A DNA stretch of 64,000 bases from sequence record MK524176.1. One strand, written 5' to 3'. The position numbers and the translations under genes are program-made. Source of the DNA: Escherichia phage PHB11. Within the stretch, counting starts at the first letter, position 1, and each line of letters opens with the position of its first letter. Positions 14,183 to 61,730 of the stretch are shown here, in pieces. Below the pieces are notes generated by a model. That model was not told the DNA's origin. It made no database searches and saw nothing but the letters and a program-made list of their open reading frames with translations.

Positions 14183-14740
14183 ATGAGATATTTGAAGTAT
14201 GCTTCATGGATTTTCCTAGCTTTGTTAGACCCATTGGCAGCAATCTTAGCAGTTATCTTAGCACCTTTCGTAGTTCCATTTTACAGTGAGAAGAAAGGAC
14301 ACTTACCTTTCGGATTTAGATGGATGGAAACTTATGACAACCCAATTGACGGTGATGAAGGTCATGTCAAACGATGGGCTAAGATTAGAAAGATTGGTAA
14401 GCTTGGTATCTATATGCAGAGAGTCGGTTGGCTCTGGAGAAACAAAGCTTATAACTTCTCCTACCATGTGTTAGGAAGAGATGTAAAAGATGTTACTAAG
14501 TGGAAAGGTAATATCAACGTAAGTTCTGACCCTGAAGATAATCAGACAGGTTATCTCTTAATGTGGAACAGTAATGCTTGGGGATTATTCGCTTTTATCC
14601 CATCAATTAAAGTCTTTGGTAAACAATTCTACTGGAGAATTTATGTTGGATGGAAACTTAAAAGTGTTGTCCCAGAAGAAAGAGCATTCTCAAGGGAAAG
14701 AGTTATGTTGACATTCTTTATTCATCCACTAAGAAAGTAA
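14183..14740 (+). CDS. Hypothetical membrane protein encoded inside the tRNA array
   Basis: 185-aa ORF, AAGAGG RBS, N-terminal hydrophobic segment IFLALLDPLAAILAVILAPFVVPF. Confidence 0.6.
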   Translation: MRYLKYASWIFLALLDPLAAILAVILAPFVVPFYSEKKGHLPFGFRWMETYDNPIDGDEGHVKRWAKIRKIGKLGIYMQRVGWLWRNKAYNFSYHVLGRDVKDVTKWKGNINVSSDPEDNQTGYLLMWNSNAWGLFAFIPSIKVFGKQFYWRIYVGWKLKSVVPEERAFSRERVMLTFFIHPLRK

Positions 14741-14748
14741 AGATTTAA

Positions 14749-14821
14749 AGGGGATTAGTTTACAAGGTTAAAACCTCGGTCTTTGAAATCGAAGAAGTTG
14801 GTTCAATTCCAACATCCCCCG
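14749..14821 (+). tRNA. tRNA-Gln (anticodon TTG)
   Basis: Acceptor AGGGGAT/ATCCCCC (1:72 mismatch), D-arm GTTT-ACAAGGTTA-AAAC, stem TCGGT/ATCGA, loop CTTTGAA, T-arm GTTGG-TTCAATT-CCAAC, CCA encoded. Confidence 0.6.
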
Positions 14822-14826
14822 CCAAT

Positions 14827-14902
14827 GCTCCATTACTCCAATTGGCAGAGAGGCCAGACTTAAAATCTGTGTTATGTATCGGTTCGAATCCGATATGGAG
14901 TA
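14827..14902 (+). tRNA. tRNA with anticodon TAA (Leu-type anticodon; no long variable arm in manual fold)
   Basis: Acceptor GCTCCAT/ATGGAGT, loop CTTAAAA, T-arm ATCGG-TTCGAAT-CCGAT, A73, CCA encoded; anticodon stem has one mismatch. Confidence 0.5.
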
Positions 14903-14910
14903 CCAAATTT

Positions 14911-14983
14911 AGCGGTATAGCATAACTGGCAATGCAGCAGTCTCTGAAGCTGTCTTATTAAGGTTCAAATCCTTATGCCGCTG
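14911..14983 (+). tRNA. tRNA-Gln (anticodon CTG)
   Basis: Acceptor AGCGGTA/TGCCGCT, D-arm GCAT-AACTGGCAA-TGC, loop CTCTGAA, T-arm TAAGG-TTCAAAT-CCTTA, CCA encoded. Confidence 0.6.
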
Positions 14984-15017
14984 CCACTTCTAAGGATTCT
15001 TACGAGAGTCCTTAAAT

Positions 15018-15090
15018 GTGGCCTTATCATAAATGGTAATGACCCATGCTGTGAACATGGTCTATACGGGTTCAAATCCCGTAGGTCACC
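15018..15090 (+). tRNA. tRNA-His (anticodon GTG)
   Basis: Acceptor GTGGCCT/AGGTCAC, stem CCATG/CATGG, loop CTGTGAA, T-arm ACGGG-TTCAAAT-CCCGT, C73, CCA encoded. Confidence 0.65.
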
Positions 15091-15098
15091 CCAATTTA

Positions 15099-15173
15099 TA
15101 GTCCAAGTAGCTTATATGGTTAAAGCGCGTGTCTGAAAAACATGAGAAGAGGGTTCAAATCCCACTGGACTAC
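15099..15173 (+). tRNA. tRNA-Phe (anticodon GAA)
   Basis: Acceptor TAGTCCA/TGGACTA (perfect), D-arm GCT-TATATGGTTAA-AGC, loop CTGAAAA, T-loop TTCAAAT. Confidence 0.6.
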
Positions 15174-15191
15174 CAATTTCAAAGGTGCTTA

Positions 15192-15926
15192 ATGAAAGAG
15201 ATGACAGAACAAGGTAAGGAGATTTTTAATCTCTTAAAAACCGGTAGAGGGTTTTCTAATCCCCTTATTACTGGTGCAGCAGTTCTCGGTGGAACCGTAG
15301 CTGCCTCTACATCACTTGTAAGCTCTATTAGCTCTGTAACAGACCCTACAATAAAGGATAAACTTGTTGCTGCTGGACTTACAACAGTTCTGCTTAACAG
15401 CTTTACAACGAGTCTGACAAGCACTACATCAACCACTAAAACACTGACAGATTACGGTCAAAAGTCCATTGCTGAGTTTTCATCACGTATGCAGGTAGCA
15501 AAAGGATATTCCAATGTTATGGGTGCAGCAGGAGAACAAGTCGGTTGTACACCATTTAGTGGTATTATGGGTGTTGCTACAGAATATGGTCAAAAAGCTA
15601 TTGACACGATTAACAGTACACTAGATAGTGTTAACGGTGTATTAAGTGACTTACAGGATGCTATTGATAAAGGTCTTGATACTATTTCTGATTTAGCTAA
15701 CCAAGCTGTTAGCAAGATTAATGAAGGTATCTCAAAGATTACAGCTTATGCAGATGAAGTTGTGCAGATGATTGAAGAAGAAGCTGCCCTTATTGCAGAG
15801 TACCTTAAAACAAATATCAATGGGTTCTTAGCAGGTATCTTACCAGACTGGTTTGACGATGCTTGTAAAACTGGTGTGATTGACACTATTGCAACACCAG
15901 AAATGAAGAACGCATTACAGAAATAA
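15192..15926 (+). CDS. Hypothetical protein (Ser/Thr-rich N-terminal region)
   Basis: ORF-track 15129 start lies inside tRNA-Phe; first ATG after the tRNA is 15192 with AAAGGTG RBS; 244 aa. Confidence 0.6.
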   Translation: MKEMTEQGKEIFNLLKTGRGFSNPLITGAAVLGGTVAASTSLVSSISSVTDPTIKDKLVAAGLTTVLLNSFTTSLTSTTSTTKTLTDYGQKSIAEFSSRMQVAKGYSNVMGAAGEQVGCTPFSGIMGVATEYGQKAIDTINSTLDSVNGVLSDLQDAIDKGLDTISDLANQAVSKINEGISKITAYADEVVQMIEEEAALIAEYLKTNINGFLAGILPDWFDDACKTGVIDTIATPEMKNALQK

Positions 15927-15927
15927 T

Positions 15928-16017
15928 GGAAGATTAACCCTAAAAGGTAAGGGAGCAGTTTGCTAAACTGCCAGTAGCTGAGAAATCGGTGTATCAGTTC
16001 AAGTCTGGTATCTTCCT
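15928..16017 (+). tRNA. tRNA-Ser (anticodon GCT), long variable arm
   Basis: Acceptor GGAAGAT/ATCTTCC, stem GCAGT/ACTGC, loop TTGCTAA, long variable arm, T-loop TTCAAGT, CCA encoded; 90 nt. Confidence 0.65.
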
Positions 16018-16024
16018 CCAATTT

Positions 16025-16097
16025 GAATCCGTGACAGAAATGGCTATGTGCCTGTCTGCAAAACAGGTTTATAAGGGTTCGAGTCCCTTCGGATTCT
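16025..16097 (+). tRNA. tRNA-Cys (anticodon GCA)
   Basis: Acceptor GAATCCG/CGGATTC (perfect), stem CCTGT/ACAGG, loop CTGCAAA, T-arm AAGGG-TTCGAGT-CCCTT, CCA encoded. Confidence 0.7.
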
Positions 16098-44391: not shown

Positions 44392-44997
<606 letters not shown>

Positions 44998-45063
44998 TTA
45001 GTTGATTGTTAAGTTGTTTGTAAAGAACCCTCAACAGAAGACTCTTTAGAAACTTGGTAGATT

Positions 45064-45350
45064 TTTAACGTGGCTACTACCATCCACCCATACCGTGCCA
45101 CACCACACCGGACTATACCATGCCCAACCCTACTACACCAGACCTTATTAAAAGACCCTCTTAAAAGACCTTTTAAAAAGGTAAGTCTCATTTTAATGTA
45201 GTTGAGACTAACTACCCATACCTTACCGCACCGGACATTACCGGACCGCACATCACCGCACCAAACCAAACATCACATTACCTGACCTCACCGCGCCTTA
45301 CCATACCTCACTTAAAAACCCCTCTTAAAGATTCTTAAGTGATGCTGGTG
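45064..45350. repeat. Mosaic repeat region R2 (same blocks as R1 in a different order)
   Basis: Blocks: GGCTACTACCATCC, ACCGTGCCACACC, hairpin AGTCTCA..TGAGACT (45184-45209), hairpin CACTTAA..TTAAGTG (45309-45341), TTATTAAAAGACCCTCTTAAAAGACCTTTTAAAAAGG; strongly G-depleted plus strand. Confidence 0.7.
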
Positions 45351-45374
45351 AGTACCCGTTGGTTTATGCTGCTC

Positions 45375-45402
45375 AGTATACTCACCAAATTTTCTATGTC
45401 AA
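45375..45402 (-). promoter_or_regulatory. Sigma70-like promoter on the minus strand (TTGACA-16-TATACT)
   Basis: Minus-strand reading AAAAGTTGTTGACA..TATACT; would give a roughly 380-nt leader through R2 before the 44994 start. Confidence 0.45.
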
Positions 45403-45408
45403 CAACTT

Positions 45409-46512
45409 TTATTCATAATCTCGTATAACGAGGCCAACAGGGAACTGTAAAGAACCTTTACGAGTCATCTTCTGGAACTGAACCGTCAAAGGTTTCCCGA
45501 TAAACTCTTCAGGATGTTCAGCAAGATACTGTTTCTTCTCATGAGTAGTCTTCCATGAGACATCTACAAAGACGTTAGGAAGAGTCTCTACAACGAACTT
45601 GCCATGACCACGCTTATCAGTCTTTACACCAGTCACTTTAAACTCTTCAGTGTGCATCTTCTTGTGCTTAATCAAGAAGTATGAACGGTGACAACACTCA
45701 TAGAAGGAGTCTTCAGAGATTGAACGGTACATTGCACCTTCAAACTTGGCTTCAACCCACTTATCATGAGCTTCATCAAACTCTTCCCAAGAATTTACAC
45801 GACGAGACTTAACAGGAACAACTTTACAGCCGTCTCTAAAGTCATTCAATGGTGAAGTCTCAATAATATCTCTACGCTCAGGCCACGTCTTAGTACTGTC
45901 ACAGATATCATACCAGTAAAACTTGAGCAAGTGTCTGTCAGGATTGTCTTCATTTTTAATCATGGAGACGATATCTTCTAAGTCCCACCCATGAGCATAA
46001 ATCTCTCCATCAAATTCATCAACATCTTTGTGGAGCCTTAACATTGCCATAATGTCAGGTATTAGTTCAGTAGGGATTTTATAAACAGTATTCTCACGAG
46101 AATATGCTGTAAACACACTACCAATACTCAAGTGTCTTGAAATCCTACAACGTACACCATCAAGCTTCGGTTGAGCATCAGCAGGGAACTTCAGATACTT
46201 TGCATGACTAACCTTTGCAGCATCATGAGCAAGCTGTACACCTACCTTCTCAGTATTCTGTGCAGACTCTTTTGTGTAAGCATAGCCTTTGCGGTCAACT
46301 TGCTTTTTATACTTAGCAGCAACTTCAAAGAGAGCTTGCTGTTCAGCATTACGCTCATTCTTTTTACCGATGTTTTTAGGTTCTGCTGTATACTCTTCAA
46401 ACATCATCTTGCCATTTTCTTTACCGTAGGTTGTAATAACTTTGTCACCTACAGCAACGCATGACCAGACGTTAAAAGAGCCGTCTTTATTTTGTTTGTA
46501 CAGAATTGTCAT
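45409..46512 (-). CDS. ATP-dependent DNA ligase
   Basis: Motif I KLDGVRC (adenylated Lys) and motif III FDGEIY; 367 aa. Confidence 0.8.
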   Translation of the reverse strand: MTILYKQNKDGSFNVWSCVAVGDKVITTYGKENGKMMFEEYTAEPKNIGKKNERNAEQQALFEVAAKYKKQVDRKGYAYTKESAQNTEKVGVQLAHDAAKVSHAKYLKFPADAQPKLDGVRCRISRHLSIGSVFTAYSRENTVYKIPTELIPDIMAMLRLHKDVDEFDGEIYAHGWDLEDIVSMIKNEDNPDRHLLKFYWYDICDSTKTWPERRDIIETSPLNDFRDGCKVVPVKSRRVNSWEEFDEAHDKWVEAKFEGAMYRSISEDSFYECCHRSYFLIKHKKMHTEEFKVTGVKTDKRGHGKFVVETLPNVFVDVSWKTTHEKKQYLAEHPEEFIGKPLTVQFQKMTRKGSLQFPVGLVIRDYE

Positions 46513-46715
46513 TTTCTCTTACCACCAATTTCTACGTCAATAACTTGAACATCACCAGCAACATCAAACTTATGAATGATGCTTTCCACAGTGTAAGTCC
46601 AACCTTCGATGCGAACCAACTCACCTTCTCGTGGGACGATTGGGTTACGTTGAGCTACCGTTGTAGTGGAGTGAACAACATCATAACGGTAGATATAGTT
46701 TACTAAGACTTGCAT
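46509..46715 (-). CDS. Hypothetical protein
   Basis: 68-aa ORF, overlapping start/stop. Confidence 0.4.
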   Translation of the reverse strand: MQVLVNYIYRYDVVHSTTTVAQRNPIVPREGELVRIEGWTYTVESIIHKFDVAGDVQVIDVEIGGKRK

Positions 46716-46724
46716 ATCTTCACC

Positions 46725-46931
46725 TTAAAAGAATAAGTCAGATGCTTTTGGGTTTGTCTGTTCACGATAATCTAACTCTCTGTATGTTTTCAGATAGTGG
46801 GTAATTTGTGCAGGCAATTCATGGCTTTTAACATCTGAACGTAGTAGTTGCCAATCAAAACCTTTACCGACTCTCCCATATAAACTAAATAATTTTACTT
46901 TGCTTTTCATTTTGGTATCCCCAATACTCAA
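46725..46931 (-). CDS. Hypothetical protein
   Basis: 68-aa ORF. Confidence 0.4.
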   Translation of the reverse strand: MSIGDTKMKSKVKLFSLYGRVGKGFDWQLLRSDVKSHELPAQITHYLKTYRELDYREQTNPKASDLFF

Positions 46932-47140
46932 AAGTCAATACTGATACGTTCACCCTTAAGAACACCTGTACGGTCTCTTGCAATCTTACCGTCAACGATA
47001 AGGATATGCGCGACCTTTAAAGCCTCACGATTAAAACCTTTTACGAACTTACTAGGCATCACCACAATAAGCATCTCTTGAATCAACTCTGGAGTGTAGC
47101 AATTATCGTGAAGTTGCTGAATAACGTCTGAAAGTGTCAT
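46928..47140 (-). CDS. Hypothetical protein
   Basis: 70-aa ORF. Confidence 0.4.
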   Translation of the reverse strand: MTLSDVIQQLHDNCYTPELIQEMLIVVMPSKFVKGFNREALKVAHILIVDGKIARDRTGVLKGERISIDF

Positions 47141-47191
47141 ATAGCCTCCTATATAAGATATTGTATAAGGTACTCTTCCATGAGCACCTTG

Positions 47192-47707
47192 TCAACTTAG
47201 TTTTGCAAACTCTCCGTGGAGTTTTATCGCAGCTTCACAGTAAGCTTTATGGGCCTCTTCTTCTGTTGTGTACGTCCCGATATGTATAGTCTTACCATTA
47301 TGGCTAATCTGGGCTTTCCACTTACCAGACTTACTTCTACTTGTACCTTTTAAGTTTTTTGATGTTCTAGGTTGCCTCCTATTAGACATGTTCTGTTCTT
47401 TTGTGGCCTCTCTAAGATTGTCCCAAGCATTATTCAAACCGTTCCCGTCTTTGTGGTCAATATGATTGTCAGGCCACTTACCTGTCATCCAGAACCAAGC
47501 AATTCGGTGATTGCCTGTCCTGTATCCTAAAATCTGGGTTTGCATATACACACCAGACCTTGTGCGCTTGATTGTACCAGCCTGTCTTCCAATCACCACC
47601 CTACTGCTATGTGGAGGTCTGCCAATCCAAGTCAAGACCCCTGTTTCGGGGTCGTAGTCTAACCAAGATTTTAACTGTTCATGTGTGAATCCACAATCTC
47701 TCATCAA
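47192..47707 (-). CDS. HNH homing endonuclease with C-terminal AP2-like DNA-binding domain
   Basis: IDHKDGNGLNNAWDNLREATKEQN HNH motif; C-terminal GKWKAQISHNGKTIHIGTYTTEEEAHKAY AP2-like; start overlaps DNA polymerase stop. Confidence 0.7.
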   Translation of the reverse strand: MMRDCGFTHEQLKSWLDYDPETGVLTWIGRPPHSSRVVIGRQAGTIKRTRSGVYMQTQILGYRTGNHRIAWFWMTGKWPDNHIDHKDGNGLNNAWDNLREATKEQNMSNRRQPRTSKNLKGTSRSKSGKWKAQISHNGKTIHIGTYTTEEEAHKAYCEAAIKLHGEFAKLS

Positions 47708-50433
47708 TGTACCTCATACCACGATTTACCAACCTTACCAGTACCTGTAACAAGTGTTTCTTTCTTTAGTCCTAAGTTTTTAGAAGCTTGTCCATAATAC
47801 CAATCAGTGACAGCTTTCACCTCTGCCGTCATACTTTCTGGGCATTCCCAACTCGTCTCATCGTGATAGGAGCACAATAAACGAGCACCTATAGCTGGTT
47901 TGCGACCGTTTAACTTCATCAAACCTTCGTCAATCATACGACGACAAGCGAGGTTAATTGCTTCATTCTGAATCTGGCTTTCCGAACCCATGAGCAAATA
48001 ATTCAATAACTTATGTGGAGATTTACACCACAACCAAGCTCCAGCAACCTTTACAAAACCCCCTTTAGAGATTGCAGCAGTCTTACCAAACACCTCTTCA
48101 AGTGCCTTTTTAGTCGCTTTGTAGTCAGCTTCCAAGTCATCTAGTAGCTTCTTAATCTTAGGCAAACGGATAAAGTAAGTCTGTTTAGTCAGTGCACCTT
48201 CCTGAGTAGTTGCAGCTTTAATTGTCTTAGCAAACTTCTCATCACCTGCACCAAACAGTAGTGCATAGATACCATTCTTAGCTTTCTTACGACCCTTGCT
48301 AATCTCATGAAGAAGGTTCTCATCCTGAGTAGCTCGACAAGTCAAGATATCCTGCTCATCATTCAAGCTAAAGTAAATACTATTCAGTGTGTGTGCATCA
48401 GTCCCTGAATAGACAACGTAAAGGTCATTCTCAGAGTCATAACGCAGATACTTGTCAACTTCTGGGTTAAGGTACTCATCAAAATGTTTGCAGTAATAGC
48501 GTCCATCTTCTTGACGAATAAACTCAATCTCTTCTTTACCTTGCGTTACCGCTTTGGTGAAGTCTTTGTCACCCATAAAGTTACAAAGGAGAACTAGCTG
48601 GGCTGAGTTCATGTCTACAGAGACAACGTTAGTACCTTCTTCACAAATCCACACTGCCCTCATTGGCTCACCGTAAACAGCAGCACCAGAAGGTACGTTT
48701 ACAATACCATACTGAGTCATACGTCCAGTAGAAGTACCAAACACCATTGCACCAGCACTAAGGCGACCATCAGGACGAATCTGGTTCAACCAACCTTTTT
48801 CATCATCTTTTGAGTTCTCAATAGTTCTGCGTCGGTGCATCAAAGTATAGTATTTAGCAATCTTCTGTCCAAGCTCACCTTCAATCGTATCATAAGATGA
48901 TTCAGTAAGTTTTGGTGAAGTACGGATTAAGCAAGGCTCAAGCAAATCTGTGTACTTCTTCACAGACCAGTTATGCTCAATGTACTGGACACCTTCGTGT
49001 TCAACATAACTCAAGCCACATCGTTCAACCATCTCCTGCCACTTAGGATGCTTTGTAATCATCTTTTTGTTGTCTTTGAAACGACAAACTTTGACAGGAC
49101 GACCGTCAGAGTCTTTCTTGTAGTTCCAGTCATCTGGAATCCAACCAACTGATTTCAAGTAATCTTTAACAACTGCTACCTGAGTCATACGAGAAACTTC
49201 GAACTCAATTGGTGTATATGGTGCATCAATCAAACCTGTGTAGCGACTTGACTCAAGCTCAAAGTGGTTAACGACATGGCTGTTATAGTACTTCACAGTT
49301 TTAACTGTTTTTACTGGCTTCCAGTCTTTGCACTTCTTACCAATCTTTGCATTCAACTCATTGCAAATTGCACGAGCATCCTTCATTGCTACAAAACCTT
49401 CCTTGTACTCTTCACCAGTTACAGAGTTGGTTGGTGTATAGCAATTCCGCTTTTCAATGTTAAAAATCTTTGTAGTTGGCTTACCAAATGGCTTGATTTC
49501 GTATGTCTGCATCTCACCGTTACGTACCTGTTGACGATACTTTGTCTTAGGGTACTTGGTAATTCTCTTCAGTCCATCTGCATGACCGAATGCTTCAACA
49601 TACTCATTCCAAGCTTTTGCAAACTCTTCTCCAGTGACTTTACCTTTGGTCTTAATAGTTGGAGGAAGATGTGGTTCAACCTCTGAAGCAAGCTCATTAG
49701 TCAACTTGTCAAGTTCCTTTACATGGAACTCCATAAGCTCTTTATCAGCTTTCCAACCATTGATAGCTTGTTGACTCATCCAGAAAGATGTTTCTTTAGC
49801 TCGCATATAGGTTTCATAGGTATCTATGCCACACTTCTTTAGCTTGAGATATTCATTATCCAGTGCACGTTTAGTTTTGGCGTTAATACGGATATCTTCT
49901 ACAACACGAGTGAAGATTTCTGCATTCCACACACCCCAATGTTCAATCTCTGGTTTACGTACACCAACACGAGCACCCCATGCTGCCAAGCCATGAGCAC
50001 CTTTATAGCCCTTTGGAGTTGGTCTATCCATCCACTGAACACGAGACTGGATAAGAGAATCCTGAAAGAAATTACTCCACGGCTTACACTTTGGATTATC
50101 AAAGTTCCACAAATCAGGTGCAATGTGATTGAAAACCCACCAGTCATATCCCAGACCATTATGGATGCAAAGTCGTTTTGCCTTTAACGCAAACTCAACA
50201 CCTTCACGCAAGCCACCCTTAATGTACTTGGTATACTTGTGACCGAGGATAGGCTCATCTGTAAAGACCCATACAGGTGGCTCTTCATCGTCAGATTTAT
50301 AGTCTGCGAAAGCCATTACGTGCACTTTAGTGAACTCAAGGAGTAAACCATCAGTTTCTGTATCACCAACTAAATGTAAGTTTTTAAAATCTACGTTTTC
50401 CATTTTTACTCCCTCTAAAATCATTAACCCCAT
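47704..50433 (-). CDS. DNA polymerase, family A, with 3'-5' exonuclease domain
   Basis: 909 aa; exo motif LVGDTETDGL; polymerase motifs VSVDMNSAQLVLL (A-like), KNGIYALLFGAG (B-like), SYHDE (C). Confidence 0.8.
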   Translation of the reverse strand: MGLMILEGVKMENVDFKNLHLVGDTETDGLLLEFTKVHVMAFADYKSDDEEPPVWVFTDEPILGHKYTKYIKGGLREGVEFALKAKRLCIHNGLGYDWWVFNHIAPDLWNFDNPKCKPWSNFFQDSLIQSRVQWMDRPTPKGYKGAHGLAAWGARVGVRKPEIEHWGVWNAEIFTRVVEDIRINAKTKRALDNEYLKLKKCGIDTYETYMRAKETSFWMSQQAINGWKADKELMEFHVKELDKLTNELASEVEPHLPPTIKTKGKVTGEEFAKAWNEYVEAFGHADGLKRITKYPKTKYRQQVRNGEMQTYEIKPFGKPTTKIFNIEKRNCYTPTNSVTGEEYKEGFVAMKDARAICNELNAKIGKKCKDWKPVKTVKTVKYYNSHVVNHFELESSRYTGLIDAPYTPIEFEVSRMTQVAVVKDYLKSVGWIPDDWNYKKDSDGRPVKVCRFKDNKKMITKHPKWQEMVERCGLSYVEHEGVQYIEHNWSVKKYTDLLEPCLIRTSPKLTESSYDTIEGELGQKIAKYYTLMHRRRTIENSKDDEKGWLNQIRPDGRLSAGAMVFGTSTGRMTQYGIVNVPSGAAVYGEPMRAVWICEEGTNVVSVDMNSAQLVLLCNFMGDKDFTKAVTQGKEEIEFIRQEDGRYYCKHFDEYLNPEVDKYLRYDSENDLYVVYSGTDAHTLNSIYFSLNDEQDILTCRATQDENLLHEISKGRKKAKNGIYALLFGAGDEKFAKTIKAATTQEGALTKQTYFIRLPKIKKLLDDLEADYKATKKALEEVFGKTAAISKGGFVKVAGAWLWCKSPHKLLNYLLMGSESQIQNEAINLACRRMIDEGLMKLNGRKPAIGARLLCSYHDETSWECPESMTAEVKAVTDWYYGQASKNLGLKKETLVTGTGKVGKSWYEVH

Positions 50434-59495: not shown

Positions 59496-61730
59496 ATGAT
59501 TAAGACAATTAAAAAATCAAACGGTACAGTAGTAAGCTTTGACCCAGAAAGACTGAATAAGTGGGCATCATGGGCAGATAAGCGTGGAATTATCTGGTCA
59601 GAAGTCACTATGGAAGCCATGAAACGTGTCTATGAGGGTTGCACTACAAAAGAGATGCACCAAGCCATGATTGATGTTTGTGTTGATAAGCAAACTCAAG
59701 AGTACTCAGACATGGCTGGACGGCTACTTCTGGGAATTATCTACAAAGAAGCCTTTGGAGGCTTTACTAAGGTTCCTACGCTGGTTACCTTCGTTAAAAA
59801 TATGGAGAGAGCAGGACTTTGGGAGAAGATGGACTATTCTCAGGAAGAGCTTGAATATCTGCAAGGGTACATTGTGCACTCAAAAGATATCTCTTATGGT
59901 TATGCAGTCCTGAAACAGTTCAGAGACAAGTATGGTATTCGTGATATCAAAACGGGAAGACTTTTTGAGTCACCACAATTTATGTTTATGGGTATGGCTA
60001 TGAAAGCCTTTGAGAAGCAACCAAAGCACCGTAGACTGCAAGATGTTATCAAGCTGTACACTTACCTATCTGACCTGAAGATTAATGCTCCTACACCTTA
60101 TCTGAATGGTTTAAGAGCTACTAAATCGGGTTATGCGTCATGCTGTTTGATTAAGGCGAATGATACCGCTGAATCACTCGGTATTGCTGCAAAGGTTGCT
60201 TATGATATGACTACAAAGCAAGCTGGTATCGGGATGCTGATGGAGACTCGTACTATTGGTGATGGTATCCGTCAAAATACTATTGAGCACATGGGTAAAC
60301 TACCTTATTACAAGCTTGTACGTTCATCTGTAGAGGCAAACAAACAGAAGAGTCGTGGTGGTTCAGCTAACAACTTCTACACTGCTCTAGACCCACAGAT
60401 TGAAGATTTACTGCGTTTGAAGCACCCTACAACGGTTCCTTCGAAACGTATTAACGAGATGGACTACTCATTCGGCACAAATGATTATTTCTGGCAGTGT
60501 GTTCAATATGATACAGACTGGTTGCTTTTCTCTTACAAGGATGCACCAAAGCTCTATGACATGTTCTACACAGCATCTGCTGATGAGTTTGCTATGGCAG
60601 TTGGTCACGCAGTACATTCAGGTGTTAAGCACAGACGGGTGAAGGCTCGTGAAATTGCTAAACTGTTTATCCAGCAGCGTTATGCAACAGGCCGTGTGTA
60701 CCCATTCTTCACGAATAATGCAAACACACATACACCATTTAAAGAGCCTTTGAAGATGTCAAACCTTTGTATGGAAATTGTGTTGCCAGTGTACGGCTTT
60801 GAGAAAGAGACAGACCTTTACAGAGATGATGCTGTGAAAGAGGATGGTGAGGTAGCTCTTTGCTTCCTAGCTAGTTTGGTTGCAGGGAGAATTTCGGAAG
60901 ATGAATACGCTGACGTTGCTTATTATGCTCTTGCAATGGTTGACTCCGTTATTGACCTTATGGATTATCCGTATCCGTCGATGCGCAACCATGTTCAGAA
61001 GCGTCGTTCTGTTGGTATTGGCCTTACAAATGTGGCTCATTACCTTGCAAAAAATTACGTGAACTACTCTTCAAGAGCAGGTAAGACAAAGCTTCATGAG
61101 CTTGCTGAAATGCACTCTTACTACTTACACGAAGCTTCTTTAAGACTTGCTAAAGAACGTGGTGTACCTGAGTATATGCAGTTCACTAAGTATCCTGAAG
61201 GTTGGGTTCCTCCGAAGACAGCTAACAGGAAGATTGATGAGAAGCATGATGCAAAACTTCGTTATGATTGGGATGACTTAGCACAACGTATTAAAGAAAA
61301 TGGTGGAATCCGTAACTCTGTATTAGAAGCTTACATGCCTAATGAGAGTTCTTCACTGGCAACTAATACGACAAATGGCTTGTATCCAATTCGTGACTTT
61401 ATTTTAACTAAAAAGTCTGCAACTGGTAACGTACTGTTTATTGTTCCAGATTACGAAGAGTTGAAGTATGTCTATGAAATTGCTTGGGATATTGACACCT
61501 TTGACCTGATTGATTGTTATGCAATTGTTCAAAAGTTCACTGGTCAAGCTATTTCTTCAGATTTCTATGTTGACTACGCAAAAGCTAAGAAGGTATCATT
61601 GGCTCAAGCTTTGAAGTACATGATTTATGCCAACTCAGTAGGTATGAAAACCATGTACTACCTTAACAGTCGCATCGGTGTAGGTAAATCTGCACTACAA
61701 GATGCTTATTGCGAGGGTTGTGGTGTTTAG
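59496..61730 (+). CDS. nrdA: Ribonucleotide reductase large subunit (class I, with N-terminal ATP-cone)
   Basis: 744 aa; ATP-cone-like N-terminus (IKTIKKSNGTVVSFDPERLNKWASWA); C-terminal CEGCGV tail; followed by a small-subunit-sized gene. Confidence 0.8.
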   Translation: MIKTIKKSNGTVVSFDPERLNKWASWADKRGIIWSEVTMEAMKRVYEGCTTKEMHQAMIDVCVDKQTQEYSDMAGRLLLGIIYKEAFGGFTKVPTLVTFVKNMERAGLWEKMDYSQEELEYLQGYIVHSKDISYGYAVLKQFRDKYGIRDIKTGRLFESPQFMFMGMAMKAFEKQPKHRRLQDVIKLYTYLSDLKINAPTPYLNGLRATKSGYASCCLIKANDTAESLGIAAKVAYDMTTKQAGIGMLMETRTIGDGIRQNTIEHMGKLPYYKLVRSSVEANKQKSRGGSANNFYTALDPQIEDLLRLKHPTTVPSKRINEMDYSFGTNDYFWQCVQYDTDWLLFSYKDAPKLYDMFYTASADEFAMAVGHAVHSGVKHRRVKAREIAKLFIQQRYATGRVYPFFTNNANTHTPFKEPLKMSNLCMEIVLPVYGFEKETDLYRDDAVKEDGEVALCFLASLVAGRISEDEYADVAYYALAMVDSVIDLMDYPYPSMRNHVQKRRSVGIGLTNVAHYLAKNYVNYSSRAGKTKLHELAEMHSYYLHEASLRLAKERGVPEYMQFTKYPEGWVPPKTANRKIDEKHDAKLRYDWDDLAQRIKENGGIRNSVLEAYMPNESSSLATNTTNGLYPIRDFILTKKSATGNVLFIVPDYEELKYVYEIAWDIDTFDLIDCYAIVQKFTGQAISSDFYVDYAKAKKVSLAQALKYMIYANSVGMKTMYYLNSRIGVGKSALQDAYCEGCGV

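Follow-up and report, generated by a model that had tools for sequence, protein, structure and literature searches.

The 64-kb stretch of DNA analysed here (the window) belongs, by sequence comparison, to a FelixO1-like myovirus of the genus Felixounavirus, and a 24-kb stretch of it shares 91-95% identity with E. coli and Salmonella phages such as vB_EcoM_H12, HY02 and EC6. On its minus strand, an HNH endonuclease ORF adjoins a DNA polymerase gene and is further surrounded by small early ORFs and a ligase gene. The features used below are as follows.

47192-47704, minus strand: HNH-AP2 ORF (allele A), a predicted homing endonuclease gene, 170 aa from the ATG at 47704
47192-47707, minus strand: the same ORF as given in the open-reading-frame list, from an alternative TTG start at 47707, 171 aa
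47704-50433, minus strand: family A DNA polymerase gene, intron-less allele, 909 aa (Pfam DNA_pol_A)
47702-47718, minus strand: putative coupling junction TAT GAG GTA CAT TGA TG, read from the sequence
47387-47509, minus strand: HNH_3 nuclease core (Pfam; alignment to I-HmuI)
47213-47341, minus strand: AP2 DNA-binding domain (Pfam, Foldseek)
47636-47653, minus strand: palindrome GACCCC-GAAACA-GGGGTC, HNH codons 18-23, encoding D-P-E-T-G-V
47707-47736, minus strand: last ~30 nt of the polymerase gene, travelling with the HNH gene; upstream edge of the tract shared with phage SP116
47707-48033, minus strand: mosaic segment, last ~330 nt of the polymerase gene, where pairwise identity jumps
47141-47195, minus strand: conserved intergenic element TTGACAAGGTGCTCATGGAAGAG...TATAGGAGG, from comparison with relatives

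Pfam profiles matched both parts of the protein: HNH_3 (PF13392) at 53.5 bits over aa 67-107 (cut-off 24.8) and AP2 (PF00847) at 38 bits over aa 123-165 (cut-off 33.3). Two curated domain matches in one intact ORF are far beyond chance and, together with the adjoining DNA_pol_A ORF, they bear out the claim of the first-pass annotation that an HNH-AP2 endonuclease gene abuts the polymerase 3' end. The protein also matches PHROG 99 'HNH endonuclease' (2e-64), and near-identical relatives in GenBank already have this gene labelled as an HNH or homing endonuclease. Numbered from the ATG, D83, H84 and N105 align with D74, H75 and N96 of I-HmuI, which the I-HmuI structure paper is said to describe as the catalytic Asp-His and the metal-binding Asn. 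Across 65 homologues H84 never varies and D83 is conserved in at least 90%, and the catalytic D-H...N...N residues are kept in the window's protein. In an AlphaFold model with a mean pLDDT of 95.5 (65 homologues in the alignment), the C-terminal third has the AP2 fold (Foldseek match to 1gcc_A, rmsd 1.2 Å over 52 columns, target TM-score 0.72). A second Foldseek match, to I-HmuI (1u3e_M; probability 1.00, 105 columns, rmsd 3.8 Å, E 0.017), is partial and covers the nuclease half only, that is, the first ~105 residues with the N-terminal sheet and the HNH motif. By profile, residues and modelled fold, the product is an HNH_3/I-HmuI-like nuclease, with cleavage as its predicted activity.

Both halves have well-known counterparts. 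I-HmuI of Bacillus phage SPO1 (PDB 1U3E) has the same HNH_3 core and, like the window's gene, is associated with a phage DNA polymerase gene, but it lies inside a group I intron and carries a C-terminal helix-turn-helix, whereas the window's protein is free-standing and carries AP2. I-HmuI is a nicking enzyme. The plant AP2/ERF domain (1GCC, 7WQ5) shares the fold and sequence family of the window's AP2 domain but is a transcription factor module without a nuclease, whereas the window's AP2 is joined to HNH. We found no further copies of the HNH gene within the 64-kb window; one weak match at 15822-15899 (E 0.43) falls in an unrelated 265-aa ORF and was rejected as a paralogue. A terminase-associated HNH packaging factor was also considered and rejected, as the ORF has no terminase or portal neighbours.

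The start of the HNH ORF is interlocked with the end of the polymerase gene. The polymerase stop TGA (47706-47704) and the HNH ATG (47704-47702) have 1 nt in common in the overlap TGATG, and the junction continues as ...GAG GTA CAT TGA TG AGA.... The alternative TTG occupies 47707-47705. The HNH start codon is likely the ATG at 47704, which is favoured over the TTG because a Shine-Dalgarno sequence, GAGGT (47715-47711), embedded within the last polymerase codons, sits 6 nt upstream of it. The endonuclease start had been described as overlapping the polymerase stop at 47704-47707; it does overlap, by 1 nt if the likely ATG is used. The ORF is out of the polymerase frame, with an in-frame stop 9 nt before the HNH start. 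No RNA structure hiding the start codon was found, this stretch being less structured than shuffled controls (z +2.2), and a scan between the two genes for a promoter or terminator belonging to the HNH ORF gave nothing above chance. Given this lack of separate signals, the unstructured start and the TGATG overlap, we infer that the two genes are co-transcribed and translationally coupled. The TTGACA of the downstream intergenic element, with its poor -10, does not qualify as a sigma-70 promoter.

To see how the site is occupied in related phages, we compared 34 loci (31 obtained through the polymerase C-terminus and 3 annotated phage regions). The site is empty in 15 of the 34. Seven loci hold the window's allele, A, at 86-99% aa identity, and 12 hold other HNH-AP2 alleles at the same spot: nine have allele B (43-48% identical to A, as in phage dune) and three have allele C (39% identical to A). 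More broadly, the 2.2 kb around the HNH ORF matched 258 phage records, nearly all Felixounavirus or close kin, and we count allele A (at least 80% of the gene) in at least 49 and the dune-type B gene in at least 58 of them, both lower-bound style estimates from a phage collection search in which split matches were merged. In that collection, annotated full-length allele-A matches overlap or adjoin a DNA polymerase feature. All four states (empty, A, B and C) occur together in one metagenome, IMG 3300045988. Presence or absence in related phages had been named as the check on the homing reading, and a universal ORF without target-site polymorphism as the finding that would speak against it. The ORF is not universal, with 15 of 34 sites empty, and the flanks are polymorphic as described next.

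The inserted DNA is ~505 bp, essentially the ORF alone, and is placed exactly between the polymerase stop and the conserved TTGACA element TTGACAAGGTGCTCATGGAAGAG...TATAGGAGG, with the HNH stop TGA (47194-47192) inside the TTGACA. At the empty site of Shy, the polymerase gene ends ...CTT GAA GTA CAC TAA and is followed by the six nucleotides TTAGTA and then by the TTGACA element, which in Shy precedes the next small gene; empty-site phages have this 6-nt distance between polymerase stop and element. In the window, Shy's TTAGTA is replaced by the ~505 bp. All allele-A genomes end the polymerase gene in TAT GAG GTA CAT T(G/A)A (...SWYEVH) while empty sites, with the exception of one locus, L019, have CTT GA(A/G) GTN CAC T(A/G)A (...SWL(E/D)VH), so that the site is indeed polymorphic at the polymerase 3' end. 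Two further empty loci (L012 and L013) differ in the spacer too. The exception, at 4867-4940 of L019, is an empty site with a hybrid end in which an A-like TAT GAG is followed by an empty-like CAC TAA TTAGTA; this could be the footprint of a loss or of partial conversion.

Alleles A, B and C have the polymerase end and the downstream element in common, and their last ~70 nt, encoding EEAHKAYCEAAIKLHGEFAKLS, are nearly identical. These shared sequences therefore provide ready anchors for allele replacement. The allele C of FelixO1 itself (NC_005282; L035 3288-3791) is ORF95, annotated 'HNH endonuclease' at 60287-60790, with ~40% aa identity to allele A. ORF95 shares genus, site and domain pair with the window's gene but belongs to the C lineage, and its overlap with the polymerase gene is 19 nt, against 1 nt in the window; its last 22 residues and the downstream element are identical to the window's.

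The HNH gene does not follow the history of its neighbours. Allele A of the Salmonella phage SP116 is 99% identical to the window's while the adjacent polymerase DNA is only ~75% identical, with 46 mismatches in 47737-47900 (polymerase) against 4 in 47198-47736, and divergence downstream of the HNH gene is ~8%. At locus L026 the HNH protein has 93% aa identity but the polymerase C-terminus 72% and lies close to Erwinia phages, and the downstream DNA does not align to the window at all. Conversely, three loci (L004, L005 and L019) have polymerase C-termini that are 98-99% identical, yet they lack the HNH gene. By these comparisons the history of the HNH gene is clearly discordant with its flanks, indicating movement between phages with diverged polymerases. 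A polymerase tail of 18-33 nt always accompanies allele A. This linkage may reflect co-conversion, target immunity or an HNH expression signal, the last being a second possible cause because the tail contains the HNH ribosome-binding site.

Such a pattern might also arise if an inactive or irrelevant nuclease were passive cargo in a hypervariable early-gene region, whose repeated intergenic elements, along with the conserved polymerase end, let ordinary homologous recombination shuffle it. Small genes of the polymerase-ligase interval are often present or absent between relatives, and with so much variation of this kind general recombination could move the ORF without any nuclease; neighbouring small genes vary likewise (Shy_0094 and Shy_0095 have no equivalents in the window), and the conserved flanks of the alleles would allow simple recombination. 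However, none of the eight allele-A copies is disrupted, each encoding 170 aa, and dN/dS is 0.04-0.15 for well-diverged allele-A pairs, which indicates purifying selection. Passive carriage fits poorly with this strong selection, with the retention of the catalytic D-H...N...N residues, and with the same gene at the same site in L026 and elsewhere where the polymerase is 72-80% identical and the downstream DNA unalignable. We consider it very improbable.

The polymerase 3' end is also a hot spot of mosaic breakpoints. Among 171 pairs drawn from 19 intron-less genomes, with a jump defined as at least 10 identity points, identity jumps at polymerase nt 2400 (window ~48033) in 68 pairs and at nt 2500 in 37, while positions elsewhere in the polymerase gene show jumps in 0-13 pairs. 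Mean identity falls from ~90% to 81-84% over the last 300 nt of the gene. The mosaic segment at 47707-48033 comes in two main haplotypes whose block boundaries differ by lineage. The suggestion that insertions of this type mark recombination hot spots thus finds qualitative support here.

Taken with the presence/absence polymorphism and the discordant flanks, this hot spot supports the first-pass view of a selfish homing endonuclease inserted next to a replication gene, and we think that the ORF is probably a free-standing, intron-less HNH-AP2 homing endonuclease gene, active or recently active. We envisage that the HNH gene would be co-transcribed with the polymerase gene and translated at a low level by coupling or re-initiation. 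In a mixed infection the product would bind DNA through its AP2 domain and N-terminal sheet and nick or cut alleles that lack the HNH gene, close to where the polymerase gene ends. Repair by recombination, with the HNH-bearing genome as template, would then copy the ORF into the empty site and carry over the terminal ~20-330 nt of the polymerase gene. The enzyme's own genome would be immune because its site is split and its flank changed, from CTT GAA GTA CAC TAA to TAT GAG GTA CAT TGA. Alleles B and C could replace one another, or A, by recombination through the common ends. The transferred tract suggests a cut site close to the insertion point. Further observations count against homing: in the window the tract that came along on the polymerase side is very short (~30 nt), and the empty-site locus L019 has part of the allele-A flank. 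A literature search on an analogy with T3/T7 gene 5.3 (F-TslI) found nothing, and we do not rely on it.

Strong purifying selection is expected of a domesticated, useful gene too, and the HNH-AP2 protein might be kept for helping the phage rather than for homing, for instance by nicking or binding DNA during replication or recombination, by excluding competing phages, or by regulation through AP2. The low dN/dS (0.04-0.15) with all copies intact, the tight coupling to the polymerase gene and the occurrence of some HNH-AP2 allele at this spot in a majority of the relatives sampled, the type phage FelixO1 among them, would all suit such a role. However, the site holds no gene in 15 of the 34 relatives, so the gene is dispensable, and identity discordant with the flanks is the signature of a mobile element. 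Domestication therefore seems improbable to us, if somewhat less so than passive carriage. It also partly overlaps with the homing reading, since marker exclusion is itself a consequence of homing.

In some relatives a group I intron interrupts the polymerase gene (Rfam Intron_gpI, 60-62 bits; L003 4725-5059, L033 4284-4567 and L029 3199-4001). Its insertion point corresponds to 48260/48261 of the window, where the window is empty, and the Rfam search found no intron in the window. Intron forms of ~800 nt encode a 160-aa Endonuclease_7-type ORF (Pfam 9e-20), and NJ12 and L033 have an ORF-less intron. The free-standing enzyme could in principle help this intron by cutting its insertion site ~555 nt upstream, as in collaborative or trans homing, for which mobE with I-TevIII and collaborative homing offer precedents (PMC2988022). 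The ORF-less introns of NJ12 and L033 speak for this, as does the combination of such an intron with allele A in NJ12. However, the window combines allele A with an intron-less polymerase gene, and at the insertion site its sequence matches exactly that of Shy, which has neither HNH gene nor intron, so that the enzyme would cut its own genome. Further, intron and HNH status are uncorrelated across loci, and the long intron forms bring their own Endonuclease_7 ORF. With its own genome unprotected at the insertion site, targeting of that site by allele A is unlikely and was rejected; of the alternatives to homing weighed here, we give help to the intron the least credence.

A separate feature lies ~50 nt into the ORF. 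The palindrome GACCCC-N6-GGGGTC is perfect in all 21 HNH genes at the site (19 distinct sequences, spanning alleles A, B and C), where it encodes D-P-x-x-G-V; besides the window, the observation draws on L002-L035 and L042-L086. The loop occurs in five versions but the four arm codons never change, whereas only 1 of 20 other invariant-amino-acid columns (outside the shared 3' tail) has an invariant codon. Synonymous sites flanking the palindrome do vary, and the alleles are only 40-48% identical. The arms use the phage's rarest codons (CCC, 3.3% of Pro; GGG, 7.2% of Gly; GTC, 11.8% of Val), with a joint expectation of 1e-4 for the arm codons, and in the arms the positions free to change synonymously are paired with positions that the amino acid fixes. 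The predicted hairpin in the window has a folding energy of -18.9 kcal/mol (z = -3.4), and the motif occurs once in the 64 kb. The palindrome turns up again in an HNH paralogue at a second Felixounavirus site, and a few other phage contigs have it as well. As a family-wide feature it was rejected, being present in 1 of ~60 distant relatives chosen independently of the motif. Among matches to the pattern in viral contigs, ~14 of 51 are non-coding and several look terminator-like.

We regard the palindrome as a sign of selection at the nucleotide level, to which we assign no cause. Our first guess would be an RNA attenuator or terminator that keeps nuclease expression down, and our second a DNA site for the AP2 domain. 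A wider reading, which we offer tentatively and hold to be rather doubtful, is that the post-polymerase site is an arena in which at least three HNH-AP2 lineages, 40-48% identical, swap through shared flanks. It is equally tentative that these lineages and the second-site paralogue are under a nucleotide constraint which keeps the hairpin as a possible cis-acting control element. If this were true, the hairpin could cap polymerase transcripts and throttle nuclease expression; alternatively, it could be an AP2-bound site for self-regulation or self-recognition.

As an element the gene is ordinary: the HNH-AP2 homing family and its position beside polymerase genes have already been described (PMC10448857). 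In this family (Magnani et al. 2004, as cited in PMC10448857), 29% of the neighbourhoods surveyed had the gene close to a DNA polymerase gene (PMC10448857). Like the window's protein, family members, including the 'IPA-HNH' genes of vibriophage ICP1, have an N-terminal HNH and a C-terminal AP2 domain and are free-standing in phage genomes, often beside DNA polymerase genes (PMC10448857). They differ in that the window's protein matches Pfam HNH_3 directly, whereas the ICP1 genes are too divergent for this profile. FelixO1 has been reported to contain six such sequences (PMC8300805). Intron-less homing and marker exclusion have been reviewed (PMC2988022), and the Seg and Mob enzymes of T4 are established cases (PMC2988022, PMC2790892). 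The Seg proteins and MobE likewise home without introns between essential genes, with flank co-conversion and marker exclusion, but their DNA-binding modules differ from the window's and they often cut hundreds of bp from their own gene (PMC2988022, PMC2790892).

The HNH element would account for the mosaicism that the polymerase 3' end and the adjoining early-gene region show in Felixounaviruses, which are widely proposed for the biocontrol of Salmonella and E. coli. Given this mosaicism, phylogenies should not rely on the polymerase 3' end. With one empty and three occupied states, the locus would offer a clean natural system for competition between homing-endonuclease alleles, and its inferred polymerase coupling and embedded hairpin could make it usable for studying how such genes are kept at low expression.

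Several features of the surroundings were also noted. The small-gene cluster at 46509-47140 of the window differs in content from its counterpart in Shy (L001, 2156-3777): equivalents of Shy_0094, Shy_0095 and others are missing from the window. Several small genes of the polymerase-ligase cluster start alike, sharing a ribosome-binding site and their first codons. A non-coding gap of ~415 bp (44995-45408) upstream of the ligase gene contains short tandem repeats (a 13-mer x3.1 and a 15-mer x2.7), and a consensus-like promoter, TTGACA-16-TATACT, lies at 45402-45375 on the minus strand. Finally, 24 tRNA genes (Rfam) are clustered on the plus strand at 10515-16097, as is usual in FelixO1-like phages.
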